Below, in pieces: positions 13,467 through 39,540 of a DNA stretch of 41,977 nt. Every line of letters begins with the position of its first letter. Within the stretch, counting starts at the first letter, position 1. Under the pieces are notes generated by a model. It did no database searches. It saw only the letters and a program-made list of their open reading frames with translations, and had not been told where the DNA came from. A program made the translations under genes and the position numbers. Where the stretch lies: IMG/VR virus record IMGVR_UViG_2563366853_000004, positions 1 to 41,977 of that record. One strand, given 5' to 3'. Source of the DNA: a virus (taxonomy: Duplodnaviria; Heunggongvirae; Uroviricota; Caudoviricetes).

Positions 13467-15347
13467 ATGACGCCAAGTGAACTTAGCGACCTGCTTTGGG
13501 CGCAGGTTGACAGGGTGGCTCCGCACCTGTTGCCAAACGGCAAGAAAGAGGGGCATGAGTGGGTTGCCGGTAACGTCAACGGTGACAAGGGAAACAGCCT
13601 TAAGGTCAACCTTAGCGGCAAGAAAAAATGGGCTGATTTCGCTGAGGGAGACGGCGGTGACATGCTTGATTTGTGGATGTCATGTCGTGGAATTAACCTG
13701 CATCAGGCTATGCAGGAAGCGAAAGCATTTCTCGGTATCAAGGATGACGATCACCATTTCGATGCCAAACGTGAGAAGAAATTCTCCAGACCTGATCGCA
13801 AGAAAATCGCCCGCTACGTTACCAGAACAGAATCCCATCTTGAGTACCTGCAATCGCGTGGCATATCGCCAGAAGTCGTAAAGCGCTACGAGGTTGTCAG
13901 CGGCAAGGTGTGGAATGGAGAGCGGGAACTGGATGCTCTGGTGATTCCGTACAAACGCGATGGTGAGTTGTTGCAGGTCAAGCGAATCAGCACTGAGCGC
14001 CCGGACGGGAAGAAAGTCATTATGGCAGAAGGTGATTGCGAACCTTGTCTGTTCGGATGGCAGGCTCTGGACGCTGGCGTGAGGGCGGTTGTACTTTGCG
14101 AAGGCGAAATTGATTGTATGAGCTATGCGCAATACGGCATCTCGGCGTTATCCGTGCCGTTTGGTGGCGGGAAAGGCGCTAAGCAGCAGTGGATTGAGTT
14201 TGAGTATCACAATCTCGACAGGTTTGAGGAAATATTCATCTCGATGGACGTTGATGATGTTGGTCGTGAAGCCGCAAGGGAAATCGCAAGCCGACTCGGT
14301 GAACATCGTTGCCGTCTTGTTACTCTGCCGTACAAAGACATCAACGAATGCCTGATGAACGGTGTTACCGAGGATGAAATCTGGCAGTACATCGGCACGG
14401 CATCCTACTTCGATCCTGAAGAACTCTACAGCGCGCGAGAGTTTTACCAGGACACTATCAACGCTTTCTACGGCAAGCAGCAGTATCTGTTTAATCCACC
14501 GTGGGAATCTCTGGCAGATAAATTCCAGTTCCGTGAGGCCGAGTTGACGCTGGTCAATGGTGTGAACGGTCACGGAAAAACGGAGGTTGTCGGGCATATG
14601 GCACTTGAGGCAATGCGTCAGGGTGTGAAGACGTGCATCGCGTCACTTGAGCTGAAGCCAGGCATTCTCCTTAAGAGACTTACCCGTCAGGCGACGTGCT
14701 GCAAGATGCCGCCAGTGCTGGAAATTGACTCTGCATTTAAATTTTATGACGAAAGACTTTGGGTGTTTGGCCTGACCGGAACGGCGAAAGCCGACAGGCT
14801 GATCGAAATATTCGACTACGCTCGCCGCCGATACGGCATCCAGTTATTCATCATCGACAGCCTGATGAAATGTGGCATAGGCGACGATGACTATAACGGG
14901 CAGAAAGCGTTTGTTGACTCGATTTGCGATTTCAAAAACAAAACAAACTCCCACGTCATTCTCGTTACTCACTCGCGAAAAGGTGACAGCGAAGAAAAAC
15001 CAACCGGGAAAATGGACGTAAAAGGCTCTGGAGCGATAACAGACCTGACAGACAACCTTTTCATCATCTGGCGTAACAAGGCTCGCGAGAGAGCGTTACA
15101 GAGAGTTCAGAGTGGTGAAAAGATGTCAGAGAAGGACGAACAGCTACTGGCATCTCCGGCATCTGTTTTGATGCTTGAAAAACAACGTAACGGCGAAGGT
15201 TGGGAAGGTGGTGTCCCGTTGTTCCTTGACGAGCAATCGCACCAGTTCCTGCAACTTGAATCAGGATCGCCATATAGCTACATCGCCAATATGCCGAAAT
15301 CGGAATATGACGAGGCGTGGCGACAGGAAAACGTGACGGAGTATTAA
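13467..15347 (+). CDS. Bifunctional DNA primase (Toprim) and DnaB-like replicative helicase
   Basis: 626-aa ORF with GAGGG SD; N-terminal acidic motifs (VVLCEGEIDCMSY…ISMDVDDVG) suggest Toprim; C-terminal Walker A-like GVNGHGKTE and Walker B-like LFIIDSLM suggest a DnaB/RecA-fold helicase. Replaces lambda P. Confidence 0.75.
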   Translation: MTPSELSDLLWAQVDRVAPHLLPNGKKEGHEWVAGNVNGDKGNSLKVNLSGKKKWADFAEGDGGDMLDLWMSCRGINLHQAMQEAKAFLGIKDDDHHFDAKREKKFSRPDRKKIARYVTRTESHLEYLQSRGISPEVVKRYEVVSGKVWNGERELDALVIPYKRDGELLQVKRISTERPDGKKVIMAEGDCEPCLFGWQALDAGVRAVVLCEGEIDCMSYAQYGISALSVPFGGGKGAKQQWIEFEYHNLDRFEEIFISMDVDDVGREAAREIASRLGEHRCRLVTLPYKDINECLMNGVTEDEIWQYIGTASYFDPEELYSAREFYQDTINAFYGKQQYLFNPPWESLADKFQFREAELTLVNGVNGHGKTEVVGHMALEAMRQGVKTCIASLELKPGILLKRLTRQATCCKMPPVLEIDSAFKFYDERLWVFGLTGTAKADRLIEIFDYARRRYGIQLFIIDSLMKCGIGDDDYNGQKAFVDSICDFKNKTNSHVILVTHSRKGDSEEKPTGKMDVKGSGAITDLTDNLFIIWRNKARERALQRVQSGEKMSEKDEQLLASPASVLMLEKQRNGEGWEGGVPLFLDEQSHQFLQLESGSPYSYIANMPKSEYDEAWRQENVTEY

Positions 15348-31776: not shown

Positions 31777-33153
31777 TTGGCTACATGGCAACAGGCTGGT
31801 AATTCAGGCGCGCTTCTTGCCGGGTTAGGCGGCATGAACTCCAACGCTCCAAGAGCAAGTGATGCAGACGCCACGCTTGCATACATTCGACAGAATAACG
31901 AGATGGAGCGTTCAGGACGTAATAACGTTGGCTTGCAGGCTTTACAGGGCATTTCATCTGTCATGGATATGTATAAGCAGATGGATCAGCAGAAGCGACA
32001 GCAAGAGTTTCAGCAGGCTTATGCTGATGCATATACATCTGGTGACCGCGATGCAATGCGAAAGCTGGCATCACAGTATCCTGAGCAGCTTGACGCTGTA
32101 AGAAACGGCATGAAATTTGTCGATGAAGACCAGCGTTCCACTGTCGGTACACTGGCAGCAAGTGCCAGACTCGCAGCTTCATCTCCAGAAGCCATGATGT
32201 CATGGTTGCAGAACAACTCATCTGAGCTTACTCGTGCCGGAGTAGACCCTCTGGATGTGGCGAAAATGTATCAGCAAAATCCACAAGGTTTCACAGAGTT
32301 TGTTGATCACCTTGGAATGGCTGCACTTGGTCCGATTGATTACTTCAATGTTCAGGACAAGATAGCTGGTCGTGAGATTGACCGAGGCAGACTGGCAGAG
32401 ACAATCCGCAGCAATCAGGCTGGCGAGGCGCTAACAGCGCGTGGTCAGAATATCACGATGCGCGGTCAGGATTTATCGATGCAGAGAGCATCAATGAAAG
32501 GGGCGGTTGGGAATAATGAGCGTACAGTTCAGTTAGCAGATGGCAGAACTGTAACGGTAGGCGGGAAGCTTCACGGCGCTGGGGCTAATGCGTTCTACGA
32601 AGGTATCGACAACGAGGGGAATATGGTTCGCGTTCCTGCTGGTTCTATTGCCGCTCCGGCTACATCGGCAGCAAGCGCGCAGAATTACGCAATGAAGAAA
32701 GATCTTGATGCAATTTCTGGTGCATCAATTGACGATCTTGGCTTCATGACTGGCATTACAGGCTCTTCAGGTTCTCCTGCTCTTGGTGCAGATATTCGTA
32801 GCCGTGCATCTGGTGGTGATCAGAGGAAACTATACAACGCTGCACAGCGAATCCAAGGAAAGATGCAGAATCAGGGCATTGCAGCAGCCAGAGACATGGG
32901 GGCATCCGGTATCAACACCGTTGCAGAAGCAAAGATGTATTTTCAAGGTATGCCACAGGTTGATTTCTCAAGCCCTGAAGCACTGCAACAATCAATGCGC
33001 GACATTCAGCAATATACCGACAATTACAACCAGCAATATAACGTTAATGTCGGTAATGGCGGGAAGAAATCATCAAGGCAACAGCCAGCTACTCAGCAAT
33101 CAGCAGGAGGTAGCTACACGTCAAAATCAGGCATTCAATTTACGGTGGAATGA
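31777..33153 (+). CDS. Ejection protein, gp20-like
   Basis: 458-aa ORF with TTG start preceded by GGAGG (6-nt spacer); position matches P22 gene 20. Confidence 0.6.
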
Positions 33154-34991
33154 TGAAAGTAACTGCAAACGGTAAGACATTTACCTTCCCTGATGGTACG
33201 AGCACGGAAGATATTGGCACCGCCATTGATGAGTATTTTGCTGGTCAGGCTGTTCAGCAACAAACAGTTAATCAGGCCAATAATGCACCAACACGGGAAG
33301 AACCATCATTGATGCAACAAGCTGGCGATTGGCTCACTGGTGGTCAAAGTGCAGGGCAAATTGCAGAACAGGCTGGTCGTGGTCTGGTAAACATACCATT
33401 TGACGTATTACAGGGCGGCGCAAGTCTGATTAATGCAATCAGTCAGGGGCTTGGTGGCCCCAAGGTTTTGGATGATGTTTATCGTCCAGTAGACAGACCG
33501 ACAGACCCCTACGCTCAAGCTGGAGAAACAATTGGCGGGTATTTAGTTCCAGGAGTTGGAACGGCAGGAAGCATGGCTATTGGATCACTGGCAGAGGCCG
33601 CAAATCAGAAAGGTGATTTCGCACAAAATGCAGCTAAAAATGCCGGAGTTAACCTTGCCGCTCAGGGTGTTCTTTCCGCAGCAGCAAAGGGAATAGGGCG
33701 TGGAATAACGGCTATAAAAGGTGATATTGCGCCAGAAGTGGCAAAGAAAATTGCCACATCAGAATCGATGGGCGTGACACCAATGACATCTGATGTTATC
33801 CCGCCGAAAAATGCTTTCACTCGCGGACTTACTCAAGATGCTGAGGGGGCTTTGCTCGGGACAGGCTCAAAGCGAGCGGAGCAATATGCAACGCGTAGTA
33901 AGCTGGTAAGCAATTATTTTGACCGTTTTGGTGAGTACAACCCTGATGATGTGGTGAGATCTCTGACCACCACGTTAAGGGGACGGAAGGATGCCGCTGG
34001 CGCTGTTATCAATGACGTCACCAATAAAATGGGTAATGCCGCAGTTGATACCACAAATACCATGAATGCTCTGAATACAGCGATCGCAAGACAGGAACGG
34101 CTTGGGACTTCTGCCAATCAAAACCTGCTTACATCCTTGCGTAACCTACGTGAAGAATTAGCAACCCCTGCAACTGATTTGGATGTTACGTTTGATCTCT
34201 TGCGCCAGCACAGAACAGCATTTAGATCTAATGTTCAGGGAGATGCCATGGTCTTCCCCAACCAGGCAAAAGCAGCTACCAATATGGTAGAGAATGCAAT
34301 GTCAAAAGACCTTCGTAACGCAGTTGCCAAAAACCTCGGTGCTTCAGACGCAGCAAAATACCTTAAAGCAAATTCCGATTATGCAAACGTTTATAATAAG
34401 GTGCTTAATAAAAACATTGCTAACAAGCTCAACAAGGCAAGCAGTGAAGCCAGTCCTGAACTTATAAATACCGTTGTATTAAGCAGAAAACCATCTGACG
34501 TGAAACGAATCTGGAGCGCACTTGATGATAAAGGGAAAGATGCTATGCGTGCAGCTTACGTCAGCAAAATAGCGGAAAAGGCCGGTGACTCTCCAGCCAA
34601 GTTCATCACTGAAGTTAATAAGCTGAAATCTCAGTCAGGCGGTGAAATTTACAACACTATTTTTTCTGGAAAGCACATGAAAGAACTTGATGCTCTTCAT
34701 GAAGTTCTACAGCAAGCAGCAAGATCAGACACCGCAAATGTAGTAACTCAGACGGGGCAATCGCAAGCCAACAGGATAAGGACGATTGGCGCAACTACGA
34801 CTCTTGGCGTATCAATGGGGCTTGAGGCTGGTTTCGGTGCAATGATGCGCTTGTATGAATCCAAAGCAGCAAGGAATGCGCTCTTACGTCTGGCAAACAC
34901 TAAAGCTGGAACGCCAGCTTATGAAAGAGCGCTAAATCAGGCGGCTACTGCCGTGCGCCCGCTCTTAGTTAACGAAGCTACCCGGCAGTAG
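33150..34991 (+). CDS. Ejection protein, gp16-like
   Basis: 613-aa ORF overlapping the upstream stop; N-terminus [33 protein letters not shown] as recalled for P22 gp16. Confidence 0.7.
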
Positions 34992-35013
34992 CACTGTAAG
35001 CCAAGGACGGCAT

Positions 35014-35508
35014 TTATTTTATAGTTTTTATGAATTCTTTATTAAATCCCTTCGCTTCTCCGGGGTATCTTCCGAAGACAATTTTTATAAAAACAGAAAA
35101 AATAAAGATAGCAACGCTTAACAACAATTGCAGTATCATTGGAACCCAAAGAACTACAGGCTCTATATTCATGAAACCAAATATTCTTCCGGCGATCATG
35201 GCGAAGTACCACACTGTTATCAGCAAACTTAGTGGCATATGAATTACTGATATTACCAATCCAAGAGCATCAGTAATTCTGTTTTCAAATTTTTCAGGGG
35301 AAAACTTTTCTTTAAGGTAATTCAGTGCGCAGGCCTCATTCTCTGGATTTTCAGCATTTTTCCCTATAGCAATAGAAATCTCAGATATCCTTGATTCAAT
35401 TCTTTTACGTTTAATAAAACTAGAAAAAAAGAACCACGCAATCTGCAACCCTATCCCCAGAAATAGAGTTGCGGCAACTAGCACAGCGTAACTCATAGAA
35501 TCAGACAC
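35014..35508 (-). CDS. AT-rich three-TM inner-membrane protein; candidate SieA-like superinfection-exclusion protein
   Basis: AGGAGG 6 nt upstream of GTG 35508 (alternative ATG 35496); hydrophobic segments [41 protein letters not shown] and [24 protein letters not shown]; opposite strand to the late operon, at the P22 sieA position. Confidence 0.5.
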
Positions 35509-35538
35509 ACCAACCTCCTTAGTTTTGCGCAGGATACC

Positions 35539-35904
35539 ATGAAAAAAGTTAACATTGGAAACGTACCAAAGATGCTCGTTCCGCTCTTTGAGAGCGGTAC
35601 AATTGTGTTTTGTAGAGACTTTCCAGAATGGCAACGCCTGCATCAAAAACTTGGCGTTGACGTGCATGACTCGGACGCCAACGGAGCGTCTCATACAATG
35701 AGTAGCGAGAATGGTGTTTTGCATGTGATAGGCGTGTTCAATGGCAAACTATCTACTATTGCCCATGAGTGCGCTCACATGGCATTCGATATCTGCTCAA
35801 GGGTAGGTGTTGATGTTGAACCAGGAAGAGCCAACGAGACTTACTGCTACTTAATGAGCAGGCTTGTTGAGTTCTGCGAGCGACATATCAAAAAGCCGGA
35901 GTGA
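35539..35904 (+). CDS. Small HExxH-motif protein (putative Zn-metallopeptidase-like)
   Basis: 121-aa ORF containing [10 protein letters not shown]; its stop lies within a bidirectional terminator hairpin. Confidence 0.5.
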
Positions 35905-35930
35905 CCCGGCTTGATTATTACTTTTTGCTG
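35893..35930. terminator. Bidirectional intrinsic terminator between the HExxH gene and the convergent small gene
   Basis: AAGCCGG-agtgac-CCGGCTT hairpin flanked by T-tracts on both strands. Confidence 0.55.
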
Positions 35931-36097
35931 TCTGGAGTTCGCTTATCCAATACCCAGCCATGACCTGGCTTTGTTGTTGGTGGAAGCCTTTCGTTGTCCT
36001 TGACGGTTGCAAAATTGTCTTTCTTACCGCCGCGTGGGCCAACTTCTTGGTATATTCCGCCGTTTTTTCCTGTGTTTTCACCTGGTTTTTTCGCCAT
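35918..36097 (-). CDS. Small Gly/Lys-rich hydrophilic protein (59 aa)
   Basis: GAGG 6 nt upstream of the ATG at 36097 (MAKKPGENTGKNGGIYQEVGPRGGKKDNFATVKDNERLPPTTKPGHGWVLDKRTPDSKK); possible own promoter (TTGACT … AATATT) at about 36110..36150. Confidence 0.5.
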   Translation of the reverse strand: MAKKPGENTGKNGGIYQEVGPRGGKKDNFATVKDNERLPPTTKPGHGWVLDKRTPDSKK

Positions 36098-36187
36098 GAT
36101 ATACCTCAACATACACCCGTTATTGGGCGATTAAATATTGATCTCATTTTATAAGTAGTCAATATGGCCCAGGTAAATGCAAAAATT

Positions 36188-36211
36188 AACCCACCTTCAG
36201 GTGGGTTTTTT
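36188..36211. terminator. Hairpin terminator at the mnt 3' end (possibly bidirectional)
   Basis: AACCCACC-ttca-GGTGGGTT followed by TTTTTG; overlaps the mnt stop codon. Confidence 0.5.
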
Positions 36212-36448
36212 GTACAAATCCTTCAGCGTATCAAACACCATCTTCTTAACAAGCTCTGACTGCTCATCAGCGATGCGTTCCGCATCGTCTCGATAGCCTG
36301 AAATTTTGGATGGCTTTGATACAGCATCAGTCACTATCTGAACTAATTCTGAATTAAGAGAGCGGCCATTGGATTTGGCTCGCTGTTTTAGTTTTTCCTT
36401 TAATTCGTAAGGTAGCCGCAGATTAAATTGCGGGTCATCTCTTCCCAT
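36197..36448 (-). CDS. mnt: Mnt-type ribbon-helix-helix repressor (P22 immI)
   Basis: MGRDDPQFNLRLPYELKEKLKQRAKSNGRSLNSELVQIVTDAVSKPSKISGYRDDAERIADEQSELVKKMVFDTLKDLYKK closely matches P22 Mnt as recalled. Confidence 0.85.
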   Translation of the reverse strand: MGRDDPQFNLRLPYELKEKLKQRAKSNGRSLNSELVQIVTDAVSKPSKISGYRDDAERIADEQSELVKKMVFDTLKDLYKKPT

Positions 36449-36511
36449 TCTTGATGCCTCGCTTTTGTGAGTGGATCGGCATCTTATTATCTGCTGGTTG
36501 CATCCTCAATA

Positions 36512-36526
36512 AGACCACAGTGGTCT
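36512..36526. promoter_or_regulatory. Candidate Mnt operator (perfect palindrome AGACCAC-A-GTGGTCT)
   Basis: 15-bp palindrome between mnt and the tailspike start, similar in form to the P22 Omnt sequence as I recall it. Confidence 0.5.
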
Positions 36527-36594
36527 CTTTGTTTGATTAATAATGCATCACTGTGGCAATGCTGCGGCGATTCCTTGTATCTGGAGCAAATTAA

Positions 36595-39540
36595 ATGACA
36601 GACATTACAGCCAATGTTGTAGTGAGTATGCCTTCGCAACTCTTCACTATGGCGCGTTCTTTTAAAGCCGTAGCCAATGGCAAAATTTATATCGGTAAAA
36701 TTGACACTGACCCGGTAAATCCTGAAAACCAGATTCAGGTTTATGTAGAGAACGAAGACGGTTCTCACATTCCTGTTTCGCAACCAATAATCATTAACGC
36801 TGCTGGATATCCGGTATATAACGGACAGATTGCCAAATTCGTAACCGTGCAAGGCCATTCTATGGCTGTTTATGATGCGTATGGTACACAGCAGTTCTAT
36901 TTTCCGAATGTGCTGAAGTATGATCCTGATCAGTTACGACAGCAATTAGAAGACCCAGATGGAGCGAATAAATACCCAAAACTTCAGATAGCAAGATGGA
37001 GAGACAGTTATGATGTAAGAGGTTGGGGGGCTATTGGTGATGGTGTTCATGATGATACATCAGCTCTATCAGAATTACTTTCTGTTGCAACAGGTGGTGA
37101 AAAGATAGATGGGCGAGGGCTTACTTTTAAAGTATCAACTCTTCCAGATGTCAGTCGATTTAAAAATGCTCGTTTTTTATTTGAGAGAATACCGGGTCAG
37201 CCTCTTTTTTATGCTTCTGAAGATTTTATCCAAGGAGAGTTATTTAAAATTACAGATACACCGTGGTACAACGCCTGGACGCAGGATAAAACGTTTGTAT
37301 ATGACAATGTCATCTATGCGCCTTTTATGGCTGGAGACCGCCATGGTGTAAATAACCTCCATGTTGCATGGGTTCGCTCAGGAGATGACGGGAAGACCTG
37401 GACAACGCCGGAATGGCTTACAGATTTACATGAAAACTATCCCACAGTTAACTATCACTGCATGAGTATGGGGGTTGTCAGAAATCGCCTTTTTGCTGTA
37501 ATTGAGACGCGGACCGTGAGCGGAAATAAACTGCAGGTTGCAGAGTTGTGGGATCGCCCAATGAGTCGCAGCCTTCGCGTTTATGGTGGTATAACGAAAG
37601 CAGCAAATCAGCAAGTCGCTTATATTCGCATTACTGATCACGGATTATTTGCTGGTGATTTTGTCAACTTCTCAAACTCTGGTGTTACAGGTGTTACCGG
37701 GAATATGACGGTGACTACTGTCATTGATAAAAATACTTTTACAGTTACGACGCAAAATACCCAGGATGTGGATCAGAATAACGAGGGTAGATACTGGAGT
37801 TTTGGTACATCATTTCACTCGTCACCATGGAGAAAAACCAGTCTTGGAACTATTCCTTCTTTTGTTGACGGAAGCACTCCTGTTACTGAGATTCACAGTT
37901 TTGCGACGATTAGCGATAACAGTTTTGCTGTTGGCTACCATAATGGTGATATTGGTCCACGCGAGCTTGGGATACTCTATTTCTCTGATGCTTTCGGTTC
38001 TCCTGGTAGCTTTGTTCGCAGACGCATACCTGTAGAATATGAGGCGAATGCATCTGAGCCATGTGTAAAATATTATGATGGCATTCTGTATCTGACGACC
38101 AGGGGGACATTAAGTACTCAACCCGGTAGTTCATTGCACAGAAGCTCTGATTTAGGTACATCATGGAATTCTCTTCGCTTCCCAAATAATGTTCATCACT
38201 CAAACCTTCCTTTTGCCAAAGTTGGCGATGAGCTGATTATTTTTGGCAGTGAGCGCGCATTTGGTGAGTGGGAAGGAGGAGAACCTGATAACCGTTATGC
38301 AGGAAATTATCCAAGAACATTTATGACCAGAGTTAACGTCAATGAGTGGAGTCTGGATAATGTAGAGTGGGTTAATGTTACTGATCAGATTTATCAGGGC
38401 GGAATAGTTAACTCTGCGGTTGGTGTTGGTTCAGTTTGTATCAAAGACAACTGGCTGTACTACATTTTCGGTGGGGAAGACTTTCTAAACCCATGGAGCA
38501 TAGGGGATAACAACAGAAAATATCCTTATGTTCACGATGGTCACCCGGCTGATTTGTATTGTTTCAGGGTGAAAATTAAACAGGAAGAATTTGTTTCAAG
38601 GGATTTTGTCTACGGAGCCACTCCTAACAGAACGCTTCCTACTTTTATGTCGACGTCAGGCGTGAGGACGGTTCCTGTACCCGTTGATTTCACAGATGAT
38701 GTTGCCGTCCAGTCACTGACTGTCCATGCAGGTACATCAGGACAAGTTCGCGCGGAAGTCAAACTTGAGGGTAATTACGCCATTATTGCGAAGAAAGTAC
38801 CGTCTGATGATGTTACCGCTCAGAGATTAATCGTTAGCGGAGGTGAAACAACGTCTTCAGCAGATGGTGCAATGATAACGTTGCATGGTTCCGGAAGCAG
38901 TACTCCACGTCGCGCGGTATATAACGCACTCGAACATCTTTTTGAGAACGGAGATGTTAAACCTTATCTTGATAATGTAAATGCTCTTGGTGGTCCGGGA
39001 AACAGGTTCTCGACAGTTTATCTTGGCTCCAATCCTGTGGTTACCAGTGACGGAACATTAAAGACAGAGCCGGTCTCTCCTGACGAAGCATTGCTGGATG
39101 CCTGGGGTGACGTCAGGTATATCGCTTATAAATGGCTGAACGCTGTCGCTATAAAGGGGGAAGAAGGGGCGAGGATACATCATGGTGTAATCGCGCAGCA
39201 ACTTCGTGATGTTCTTATTTCTCACGGACTCATGGAAGAAGAAAGCACAACATGCCGCTATGCCTTTCTTTGCTATGACGATTATCCCGCAGTATATGAT
39301 GACGTCATTACTGGCCAAAGGGAAATGCCGCTGACTGATAATGACGGGAGCATCATTGTTGATGAGGATGATAATCCAGTGATGGTAATGGAAGACATCA
39401 TTGAGCGCGTTGAAATAACGCCAGCAGGATCTAGATGGGGGGTCAGACCTGATCTCTTATTCTATATCGAGGCGGCATGGCAGCGCAGAGAAATAGAAAG
39501 AATAAAAGCTAGGTTAGACTTAATAGAAGGGAAGCACTAA
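36595..39540 (+). CDS. Tailspike: P22-type N-terminal head-binding domain, endosialidase-like catalytic region, C-terminal intramolecular chaperone domain
   Basis: N-terminus [58 protein letters not shown] matches the conserved P22 tailspike N-domain; the central region is unlike P22 gp9 and its endosialidase assignment is from memory of CUS-3/K1F; the last ~160 aa resemble the self-cleaving chaperone domain with a candidate cleavage motif VVTSDGTLK. Confidence 0.8.

Follow-up and report, generated by a model that had tools for sequence, protein, structure and literature searches.

The superinfection exclusion gene sieA of the P22-like phages has been characterized genetically since the 1970s and the mechanism of its product was published in 2024 (PMC10883804). 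SieA is a protein of the inner membrane and stops, for P22-like phages only, both the injection of DNA and the release of K+, it is alone necessary and sufficient for the SieA exclusion phenotype, and escape from it needs changes in the C-terminal parts of the ejection proteins gp16 and gp20 (PMC10883804). The injection block upon expression was shown for the SieA proteins of P22 and HS1, and an 85-bp upstream fragment sufficed for SieA function (PMC10883804). Among the three SieA types (A, B, and C), type A is marked by three transmembrane (TM) segments without an N-terminal extension, and the most conserved feature across all types is the cytoplasmic motif FxRYPxEAxxFNK (Leavitt et al. 2024, PMC10883804). 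Phage-borne sieA has been reported only in Salmonella phages, with type A and type B copies in Escherichia coli prophages (PMC10883804). Two further genes at the same site, hkcC and orf59a, are listed in the literature as of unknown function, and the site is a moron hotspot (PMC2629481). Here, these three genes were analyzed in the virus record IMGVR_UViG_2563366853_000004 (IMG/VR; 41,977 nucleotides [nt], hereafter the window), where the segment at 35.0–36.2 kb contains three open reading frames (ORFs) between a homologue of gene 16 (33150–34991, plus strand) and mnt (36197–36448, minus strand). The segment is no new system; the P22 sieA locus was rediscovered in an E. coli prophage of the K1 type. 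Within it, hkcC and orf59a belong to a convergent gene pair that travels independently of sieA and mnt, and the pairing is not obligate.

A sequence-only reading of the window had placed the three ORFs at the P22 sieA/immI locus and described them as a membrane protein, a protein with an HECAH motif and a 59 amino acid (aa) protein. The ORFs, the motif and the three hydrophobic segments of the membrane protein were all recovered and the placement was correct, a lysogen-expressed exclusion function being encoded at that locus. Judged by sequence identity, the locus and all three genes are already known, namely as the sieA-hkcC-orf59a cargo of P22, present here as a recombinational block of about 1.2 kb that is nearly identical to P22. 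In a megablast search of phage genomes (67 records), P22 and about 40 relatives matched positions 34900–36600 at 96% over 1.39 kb, and the annotations on the matched phage features were sieA, orf59a, mnt, and gene 16. The block aligns with the P22 record BK000583 without gaps, with nucleotide identities of 95.8% for sieA, 98.4% for hkcC, and 97.2% for orf59a. Identity to P22 is only about 75–76% over the final 138 nt of gene 16 and 75% over the full mnt gene, and the block was therefore read as a P22-type mosaic block in a different backbone. The right junction coincides with the tMNT hairpin (36188–36207), where the identity to P22 falls from about 97% to 75%. One E. coli chromosome matches the segment over its full length at 100% identity and five others match it at 99.8–99.9%, and the Prokaryotic Genome Annotation Pipeline (PGAP) labels the E. 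coli chromosomal locus "superinfection exclusion protein A." As a whole, these identities are best explained if the segment represents the sieA-hkcC-orf59a portion of the "ant moron," which P22-like phages carry between genes 16 and 9, and this is very probably the case. The mosaic junctions were sharp (34852–34991 on the left and 36188–36448 on the right), and the identity to P22 stayed at 96–98% from position 34992 to about 36190.

The corresponding region of P22 (BK000583, 13336–14770) has the same gene order, orientations, terminator hairpins and PsieA promoter, and the sieA-orf59a block is 96–98% identical at the nucleotide level, with amino acid identities of 92% for SieA, 99% for HkcC, and 98% for Orf59a. 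The window differs from P22 in its mnt gene (75% identical), in the absence of arc, sar, and ant, so that mnt abuts the tailspike gene, in its host, which is E. coli, and in its tailspike, which is an endosialidase. Phage HK620 (AF335538) shares hkcC and an orf59a-like ORF at about 99% identity with the same bidirectional terminator, tORF59A, between them, but has hkcB where the window has sieA and retains no more than remnants of mnt and ant.

The sieA gene (35014–35508, minus strand, 164 aa) starts with the curated GTG at 35508 behind an AAGGAGG Shine–Dalgarno (SD) sequence, with an alternative ATG four codons further in, and its stop lies at 35014; these coordinates map ungapped onto the sieA coding sequence of BK000583. 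The gene lies between the end of the gene 16 homologue at 34991 and a tailspike gene with a P22 head-binding domain that starts at 36595. SieA is identical to P22 SieA at 151 of 164 residues (92%, E = 2e-113, full length), and the 13 substitutions between the two correspond to a ratio of nonsynonymous to synonymous change (dN/dS) of 0.36. SieA also matches phrog_7745 ("superinfection exclusion SieA-like") at E = 6e-107. The Kyte–Doolittle profile shows three hydrophobic segments (residues ~5–29, 78–106, and 114–148) and no N-terminal extension, and the protein carries the FxRYPxEAxxFNK motif, whose published position is near residues 145–157. With three predicted TM segments, this motif and a location between homologues of gene 16 and gene 9, the protein belongs with type A, and within the published set (PMC10883804) the copy in the window is one of the E. 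coli prophage copies. The sequence-only reading had found none of the three proteins assignable; that does not hold for SieA, and does hold for HkcC and Orf59a in that they are named but uncharacterized.

The PsieA promoter (35539–35569, minus strand) was located by transfer of the regulatory feature at 13861–13891 of BK000583 at the ungapped offset, and it overlaps the first 31 nt of hkcC without a single difference from P22. The 92% identity to P22 SieA indicates with high confidence that the present copy has an exclusion function: SieA made from PsieA in the prophage would disturb the gp20/gp16 ejection-protein conduit and so stop the DNA of superinfecting P22-like phages from crossing the inner membrane. 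The PADLOC-DB v2 library contained no match at E values up to 1 for SieA, HkcC, or Orf59a, and SieA evidently lies outside that library. The longest ORF in the sieA frame reaches 35724 (236 aa) and overlaps half of hkcC on the opposite strand. Some GenBank records (UAB_Phi20) annotate sieA as this 236-aa version. In the records for phages 22, 25, and 34 the ORFs at this place are called "GNAT acetyltransferase," "tubulin/FtsZ," or "DNA helicase," which looks like an annotation error. The cluster had been called AT-rich, which is true of sieA, with a guanine plus cytosine (GC) content of 35.6% that falls into the lowest 0.1% of 495-nt windows, and not of hkcC (46.2%) or orf59a (46.7%), which are close to the window mean of 47.2%.

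The hkcC gene (35539–35904) lies on the plus strand, the strand of the late operon with genes 16 and 9, and encodes a predicted small zincin-like protein of 121 aa (~13.6 kDa) with the HECAH motif at residues 76–80 (H76-E77-C78-A79-H80) and a glutamate at position 100. HkcC is 99% identical to HkcC of HK620 and to an ORF that is present but unannotated in the curated P22 record BK000583, and it matches phrog_1365 (E = 2e-39). Substitution patterns indicate that hkcC is a real gene under purifying selection. The comparison with P22 yields five synonymous changes and one nonsynonymous change, and in comparisons with homologues of 57–78% identity the proportion of synonymous differences (pS) is 0.79–0.94, which is saturated, at a proportion of nonsynonymous differences (pN) of 0.13–0.29. 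An SD sequence precedes the gene in every lineage examined, and a profile search of 1.84 billion cluster representatives returned 552 relatives (E up to 1e-3), nearly all of them stand-alone proteins of 110–130 aa. On the grounds of the pS and pN values, the SD sequence in every lineage and the family of 552 clusters, the reading of hkcC as an artifact of the long antisense sieA ORF was rejected. An additional locus scan with HkcC sequences of intermediate divergence led to P22-type loci again and to nothing further.

An alignment of 63 sequences of the HkcC family (23–73% identical) contains only four invariant columns, H76, E77, H80, and E100, and C78 is variable across this wider family. 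The glutamate E100 follows H80 by 20 residues and stands in an "NE" context. An HExxH motif with a glutamate at +20 is the zinc-ligand pattern of the thermolysin-type (gluzincin) metallopeptidases, and on this pattern a peptidase role of HkcC is predicted. The zinc site of thermolysin consists of H142, H146, and E166, and both the spacing and the "NE" context resemble those of HkcC. The AlphaFold2 (AF2) model of HkcC (predicted local distance difference test [pLDDT] 83.7, predicted template modeling score [pTM] 0.78) has the order b-b-a-b-b-a-a, with a predicted helix at residues 71–88 that holds the HExxH motif and another at residues 100–116 that begins at Glu100. This succession of a predicted beta-sheet, an active-site helix and a "glutamate helix" is that of gluzincins and minimal zincins; unlike these, HkcC is a stand-alone protein of ~120 aa that reached no hidden Markov model (HMM) threshold and no structural match. 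Its nearest Pfam family is SprT-like (PF10263), with matches below threshold in 11 of the 63 relatives (best E = 1e-4); in the two such matches that were inspected the score was 14.9 bits, under the cutoff of 25.6, and the match extended over the HExxH helix only. HkcC itself had no Pfam, NCBIfam, or PADLOC match above threshold and reached no curated peptidase HMM, a search for fold similarity to solved zincin catalytic domains found none, and a PDB sequence search with HkcC family profiles returned only myroilysin (E = 0.16) and the N4 virion RNA polymerase (E ~1). Thus, HkcC is zincin-like by its motif and predicted topology and not a member of a named peptidase family. Matches to lantibiotic, Kri1, and DUF6161 models in the library scans of HkcC and Orf59a were spurious low scores.

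HkcC also has a paralogous clade, ~38–40% identical to it, that includes Orf129 of phages L (orf129 at 2501–2890) and ST64T and gp70 of epsilon34. Many lambdoid and P22-like phages have a gene of this clade between the spanin and the dec or small-terminase genes, and its strand is always the late one. Some P22-like phages hold both zincin paralogues, and at 12 of 80 loci of the Orf129 clade the next gene encodes an HExxH protein of ~216 aa with the motif HELYH.

The orf59a gene (35918–36097, minus strand; possibly "HkcD" in the HK620 annotation) encodes a basic, Gly/Lys-rich, Cys-free protein of 59 aa (6.4 kDa, isoelectric point 9.9) that is 98% identical to Orf59a of P22 and matches phrog_3202 (E = 7e-31). 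A GAGGT SD sequence serves the ATG at 36097, and a 64-aa version would start at 36112. With pN of 0.10–0.22 against pS of 0.72–0.93, orf59a is, like hkcC, a real gene by the mark of purifying selection. The Pfam family YjzC (PF14168) covers residues 4–49 of the 59 at 19.4 bits (E = 1.3e-3), below the cutoff of 25. A total of 108 homologue clusters were identified in Enterobacterales, other Proteobacteria and metagenomes, most of them of 59–61 aa and 65–85% identical, and UniRef names the close relatives "YjzC family protein." The most distant homologues (P0130–P0140) carry PF14168 and match Orf59a at E values from 1e-6 to 5e-4, so that Orf59a appears to be YjzC-like by transitive homology, with its own score under the threshold. 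Residues G6, G14, E18, G20-P21-R22-G23, T31, and P39 are invariant in the Orf59a/YjzC alignment, and Orf59a shares with YjzC the length of ~60 aa and the GxYxExGPRGG...LPPT motifs; it differs from that family by its score and by forming an Enterobacterales phage clade that has a conserved promoter of its own and is partnered by a zincin. The AF2 model (pLDDT 85) predicts a small beta protein with three strands. A PDB sequence search with Orf59a family profiles gave no match and Orf59a had no NCBIfam or PADLOC match above threshold. The literature search on YjzC found no functional study, and the text of the P22 RNA-seq papers mentions neither hkcC nor orf59a.

The region is rich in terminator-like sites (9, compared with 1.7 ± 1.2 in shuffled sequences). 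The two hairpins with T-runs on both strands that had been proposed near 35893 and 36188 were both confirmed, as a bidirectional intrinsic terminator at 35893–35912, common to the convergent hkcC and orf59a genes, and as a bidirectional terminator downstream of mnt at 36188–36207 (tMNT of HK620); they bracket orf59a only and not, as had been thought, the whole cluster. The first is annotated as tORF59A in HK620 and as "mnt terminator" in P22. The proposed promoter of orf59a was found at 36162–36134 on the minus strand as a predicted sigma-70 promoter (TTGACT-17-AATATT), 36 nt upstream of the ATG, and its −35 element, spacing and −10 element are conserved in front of homologues in six divergent Enterobacterales phage lineages, including ones without mnt upstream. 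This conservation supports orf59a as an autonomous unit, and there is good support for the inference that the predicted promoter is its own. An inverted repeat between the −10 element and the SD sequence (36114–36129, minus strand) has arms that covary across the six lineages (GCCC/GGGT, GCTC/GAGC, and GCCT/GGGC), with complementarity kept despite changes on both arms. The repeat lies very close to the predicted start site and may be either an RNA hairpin in the 5′-untranslated region (5′-UTR) or a DNA operator.

No promoter-like site was found upstream of hkcC in the window, the sequences in front of the gene show no relation from lineage to lineage, and in one lineage a terminator directly precedes the SD sequence of the hkcC homologue. 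Genes of the HkcC family are co-oriented with the flanking lytic genes in every context examined. Because hkcC has an SD sequence but no promoter of its own and always lies along lytic genes, it is most likely translated from the antiterminated late transcript and hence dependent on late transcription. Conversely, orf59a is most likely made in the lysogen, since it has its own conserved promoter, is antisense to the late operon and ends at the common terminator. The antiterminated late transcript that carries hkcC would also be antisense to both sieA and orf59a. The view that each of the three genes is its own transcription unit accordingly stands for orf59a and not for hkcC, which has PsieA inside its first 31 nt, and the view that the three face against the late operon stands for sieA and orf59a and not for hkcC.

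For the analysis of gene neighborhoods, a pair was defined as a zincin gene and an orf59a gene in tail-to-tail arrangement, separated by less than ~30 nt and by a hairpin, with the zincin gene along the lytic genes. The window contains such a pair, with a gap of 13 nt and the hairpin at 35893–35912. Orf59a is the convergent neighbor in 72 of 84 HkcC-bearing loci, and a zincin partner is present in 76 of the 79 informative viral contigs that bear Orf59a. Type A sieA was found in only 11 of 80 viral contigs with hkcC, and HkcB or other genes occupy its place. Among divergent viral Orf59a loci (<95% identity), eight of the 11 informative ones are paired. The pair recurs in at least five phage contexts with a gap of 4–30 nt and a hairpin, at zincin identities down to about 20–45%, and the hairpin is present in all seven divergent pairs examined (free energy from −13 to −22 kcal/mol). 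These contexts include siphovirus-type prophages in Rosenbergiella and Klebsiella oxytoca as well as a JGI contig, in which the pair lies between the tail tube/YdaY and tape-measure genes, other P22-like prophages (one with a Rap1a-like left neighbor, and one of Morganella), a metagenomic contig beside a gene for a PF18894 (PhageMetallopep) metallopeptidase, a site in Xenorhabdus, downstream of a lysis cassette, with a zincin that is only ~20–30% identical, and a high-GC phage between the late regulator and a KilA-N/endolysin region. Pairwise identities of HkcC and Orf59a correlate (Spearman 0.63), Orf59a is conserved much more strongly than its zincin partner, and one solo Orf59a locus still holds a zincin remnant. 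The convergent hkcC and orf59a genes thus move together without need of sieA or mnt, and one three-gene system of SieA, HkcC, and Orf59a was rejected in view of the rarity of sieA at hkcC loci and the sufficiency of SieA alone.

Some functional coupling of hkcC and orf59a is considered somewhat more probable than none. The opposite expression regimes, the stronger conservation of Orf59a and the persistent linkage suggest, as a tentative and on balance rather unlikely working hypothesis, an antagonistic lysogeny/lysis couple in which Orf59a would act on a conserved target in the lysogen and a late-made HkcC peptidase would neutralize Orf59a, or the complex it forms, upon entry of the resident phage into lytic growth. 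In its most general form, which is doubtful, this hypothesis would make hkcC/orf59a a widespread two-gene phage module of a lysogen-expressed, highly conserved Orf59a directed at a conserved process of host or phage, for example as an exclusion or growth-modulating factor, and a fast-evolving mini-zincin encoded within the late operon that neutralizes it in the lytic phase by cleavage or sequestration. Several observations weigh against this account of the pair. The Orf129/P0145 zincin clade is accompanied by Orf59a at none of 80 loci, and solo Orf59a/YjzC homologues are found in prophages, in other mobile elements and in chromosomes. Roughly 68 of the viral contigs with a pair are near-identical copies and not independent, which reduces the independent evidence to roughly eight lineages. 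The curated P22 annotation places the "mnt terminator" after orf59a and thereby implies cotranscription with mnt by read-through from Pmnt, instead of or besides transcription from the orf59a promoter. A rival reading takes hkcC and orf59a for unrelated accessory genes that stay adjacent only through the 13-nt spacing, the common terminator and block recombination: each family is widespread without the other, a single block in near-identical copies accounts for most of the paired examples, and phages would naturally exchange a moron that is bounded by terminators as one unit. Such hitch-hiking is a real possibility, although it falls short of being probable. It does not sit well with adjacency, convergence and hairpin that persist at zincin identities of 57–63%, 45%, and ~20–30% and in at least five insertion contexts, nor with the paired majority of the divergent Orf59a loci, the zincin remnant at a solo locus and the correlated identities.

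A different kind of coupling, in which the lysogen makes both HkcC and Orf59a as a two-component defense or toxin–antitoxin (TA)-like system with the zincin as effector and the small protein as its inhibitor or sensor, was judged quite improbable. The conserved pair, the stronger conservation of Orf59a and the location in a prophage moron hotspot beside sieA and other defense-type cargo, with Rap1a-like and ClpP-like neighbors in variants, would be expected of such a system; a promoter, found or conserved, in front of hkcC would be as well and is missing, the sequences there being unrelated between lineages and in one of them a terminator. Moreover, hkcC always lies along lytic operons, PADLOC gave no match, and a convergent rather than operonic layout is unusual for TA pairs. 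A structural or regulatory HExxH...E metal site, or a convergent motif match, is an unlikely alternative to a peptidase role of HkcC given that a purely structural site would not need the catalytic glutamate E77, which is invariant in the 63 sequences together with both histidines and the downstream glutamate; C78 is not conserved family-wide, and the spacing and "NE" context resemble those of thermolysin. Finally, the proposal of the sequence-only reading, an undescribed module for lysogenic conversion or phage exclusion built by the three genes from no characterized family, draws on the moron hotspot (PMC2629481) and on the lack of characterized homologues of hkcC and orf59a in Pfam, NCBIfam, PADLOC, and the PDB, where matches were empty or below threshold. 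It is nevertheless extremely improbable. Clear homology to the characterized SieA and to Hkc proteins, the very finding that this reading had itself set against its proposal, was observed, all three ORFs being 92–99% identical to named P22 or HK620 genes; one of them is the long-characterized SieA, which by itself is both required and enough for exclusion (PMC10883804), and sieA accompanies hkcC in only the 11 viral contigs counted above.

If the antagonistic couple were real, a switch of a new type, effector plus self-immunity or protease plus substrate, would lie beside sieA. A precedent for a prophage function, be it exclusion or abortive, that is neutralized during the phage's own lytic growth is the sieB/esc pair of P22, an exclusion gene and its self-immunity product. 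By analogy, Orf59a would correspond to SieB and HkcC to Esc; there is no sequence relation between the two systems, and esc is an in-frame sieB product and not a protease. What is new at the locus is modest: the zincin signature of HkcC, the YjzC link of Orf59a, the conserved orf59a promoter and the conservation of the pair. With these, two genes that have been carried for more than 20 years as "unknown" in the P22 and HK620 annotations can be described by family signature and pairing, and the easy genetics of P22 offers a cheap route to a first function for the PHROG 1365 and Pfam YjzC/PHROG 3202 families.

By sequence, the window is a CUS-3-like E. coli prophage with K1-capsule specificity. 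The tailspike of 981 aa (36595–39540) joins the head-binding domain of P22 to a complete K1-type endosialidase with End_N_terminal, beta-propeller, beta-barrel and End_tail_spike domains and an S74 intramolecular chaperone. The gene 16 homologue (613 aa) had no Pfam match at E values up to 1e-3, in contrast to other gp16 proteins that match PF26808 (Phage_P22_gp16), which fits the extreme divergence of gp16-type proteins noted in the SieA paper (PMC10883804). The mnt gene encodes a repressor of the Arc/Mnt family (83 aa; Pfam Arc, 2.8e-22, and Repressor_Mnt, 2.2e-18). At 36512–36526, the place of the Mnt operator, the window still has a perfect palindrome, AGACCACAGTGGTCT, but one that differs from that of P22 (GGTCCACGGTGGACC), and the −35 and −10 positions of Pant look degenerate in the window (36197–36600). 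Autoregulation may be all that is left to Mnt, or the repressor may affect read-through into the tailspike gene.

The same site between the injection and tailspike genes encodes a different exclusion determinant in phage BTP1, the lysogen-expressed antisense transcript STnc6030 of ~500–786 nt, which excludes BTP1 (PMC7067206). Four single-nucleotide polymorphisms (SNPs) that allow BTP1 to escape are nonsynonymous and lie near the C-terminus of its gene 16 homologue (PMC7067206). This part of gp16 is also where mutations that escape SieA lie, and one may therefore ask whether a small protein, and not the STnc6030 RNA, is the effector in BTP1. The sieA slot also varies among other P22-like prophages, with HkcB and a ClpP-like protein of 178 aa in one and a Rap1a-like protein of 117 aa in another. 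Rap1a is an immunity fold of the type VI secretion system (T6SS).

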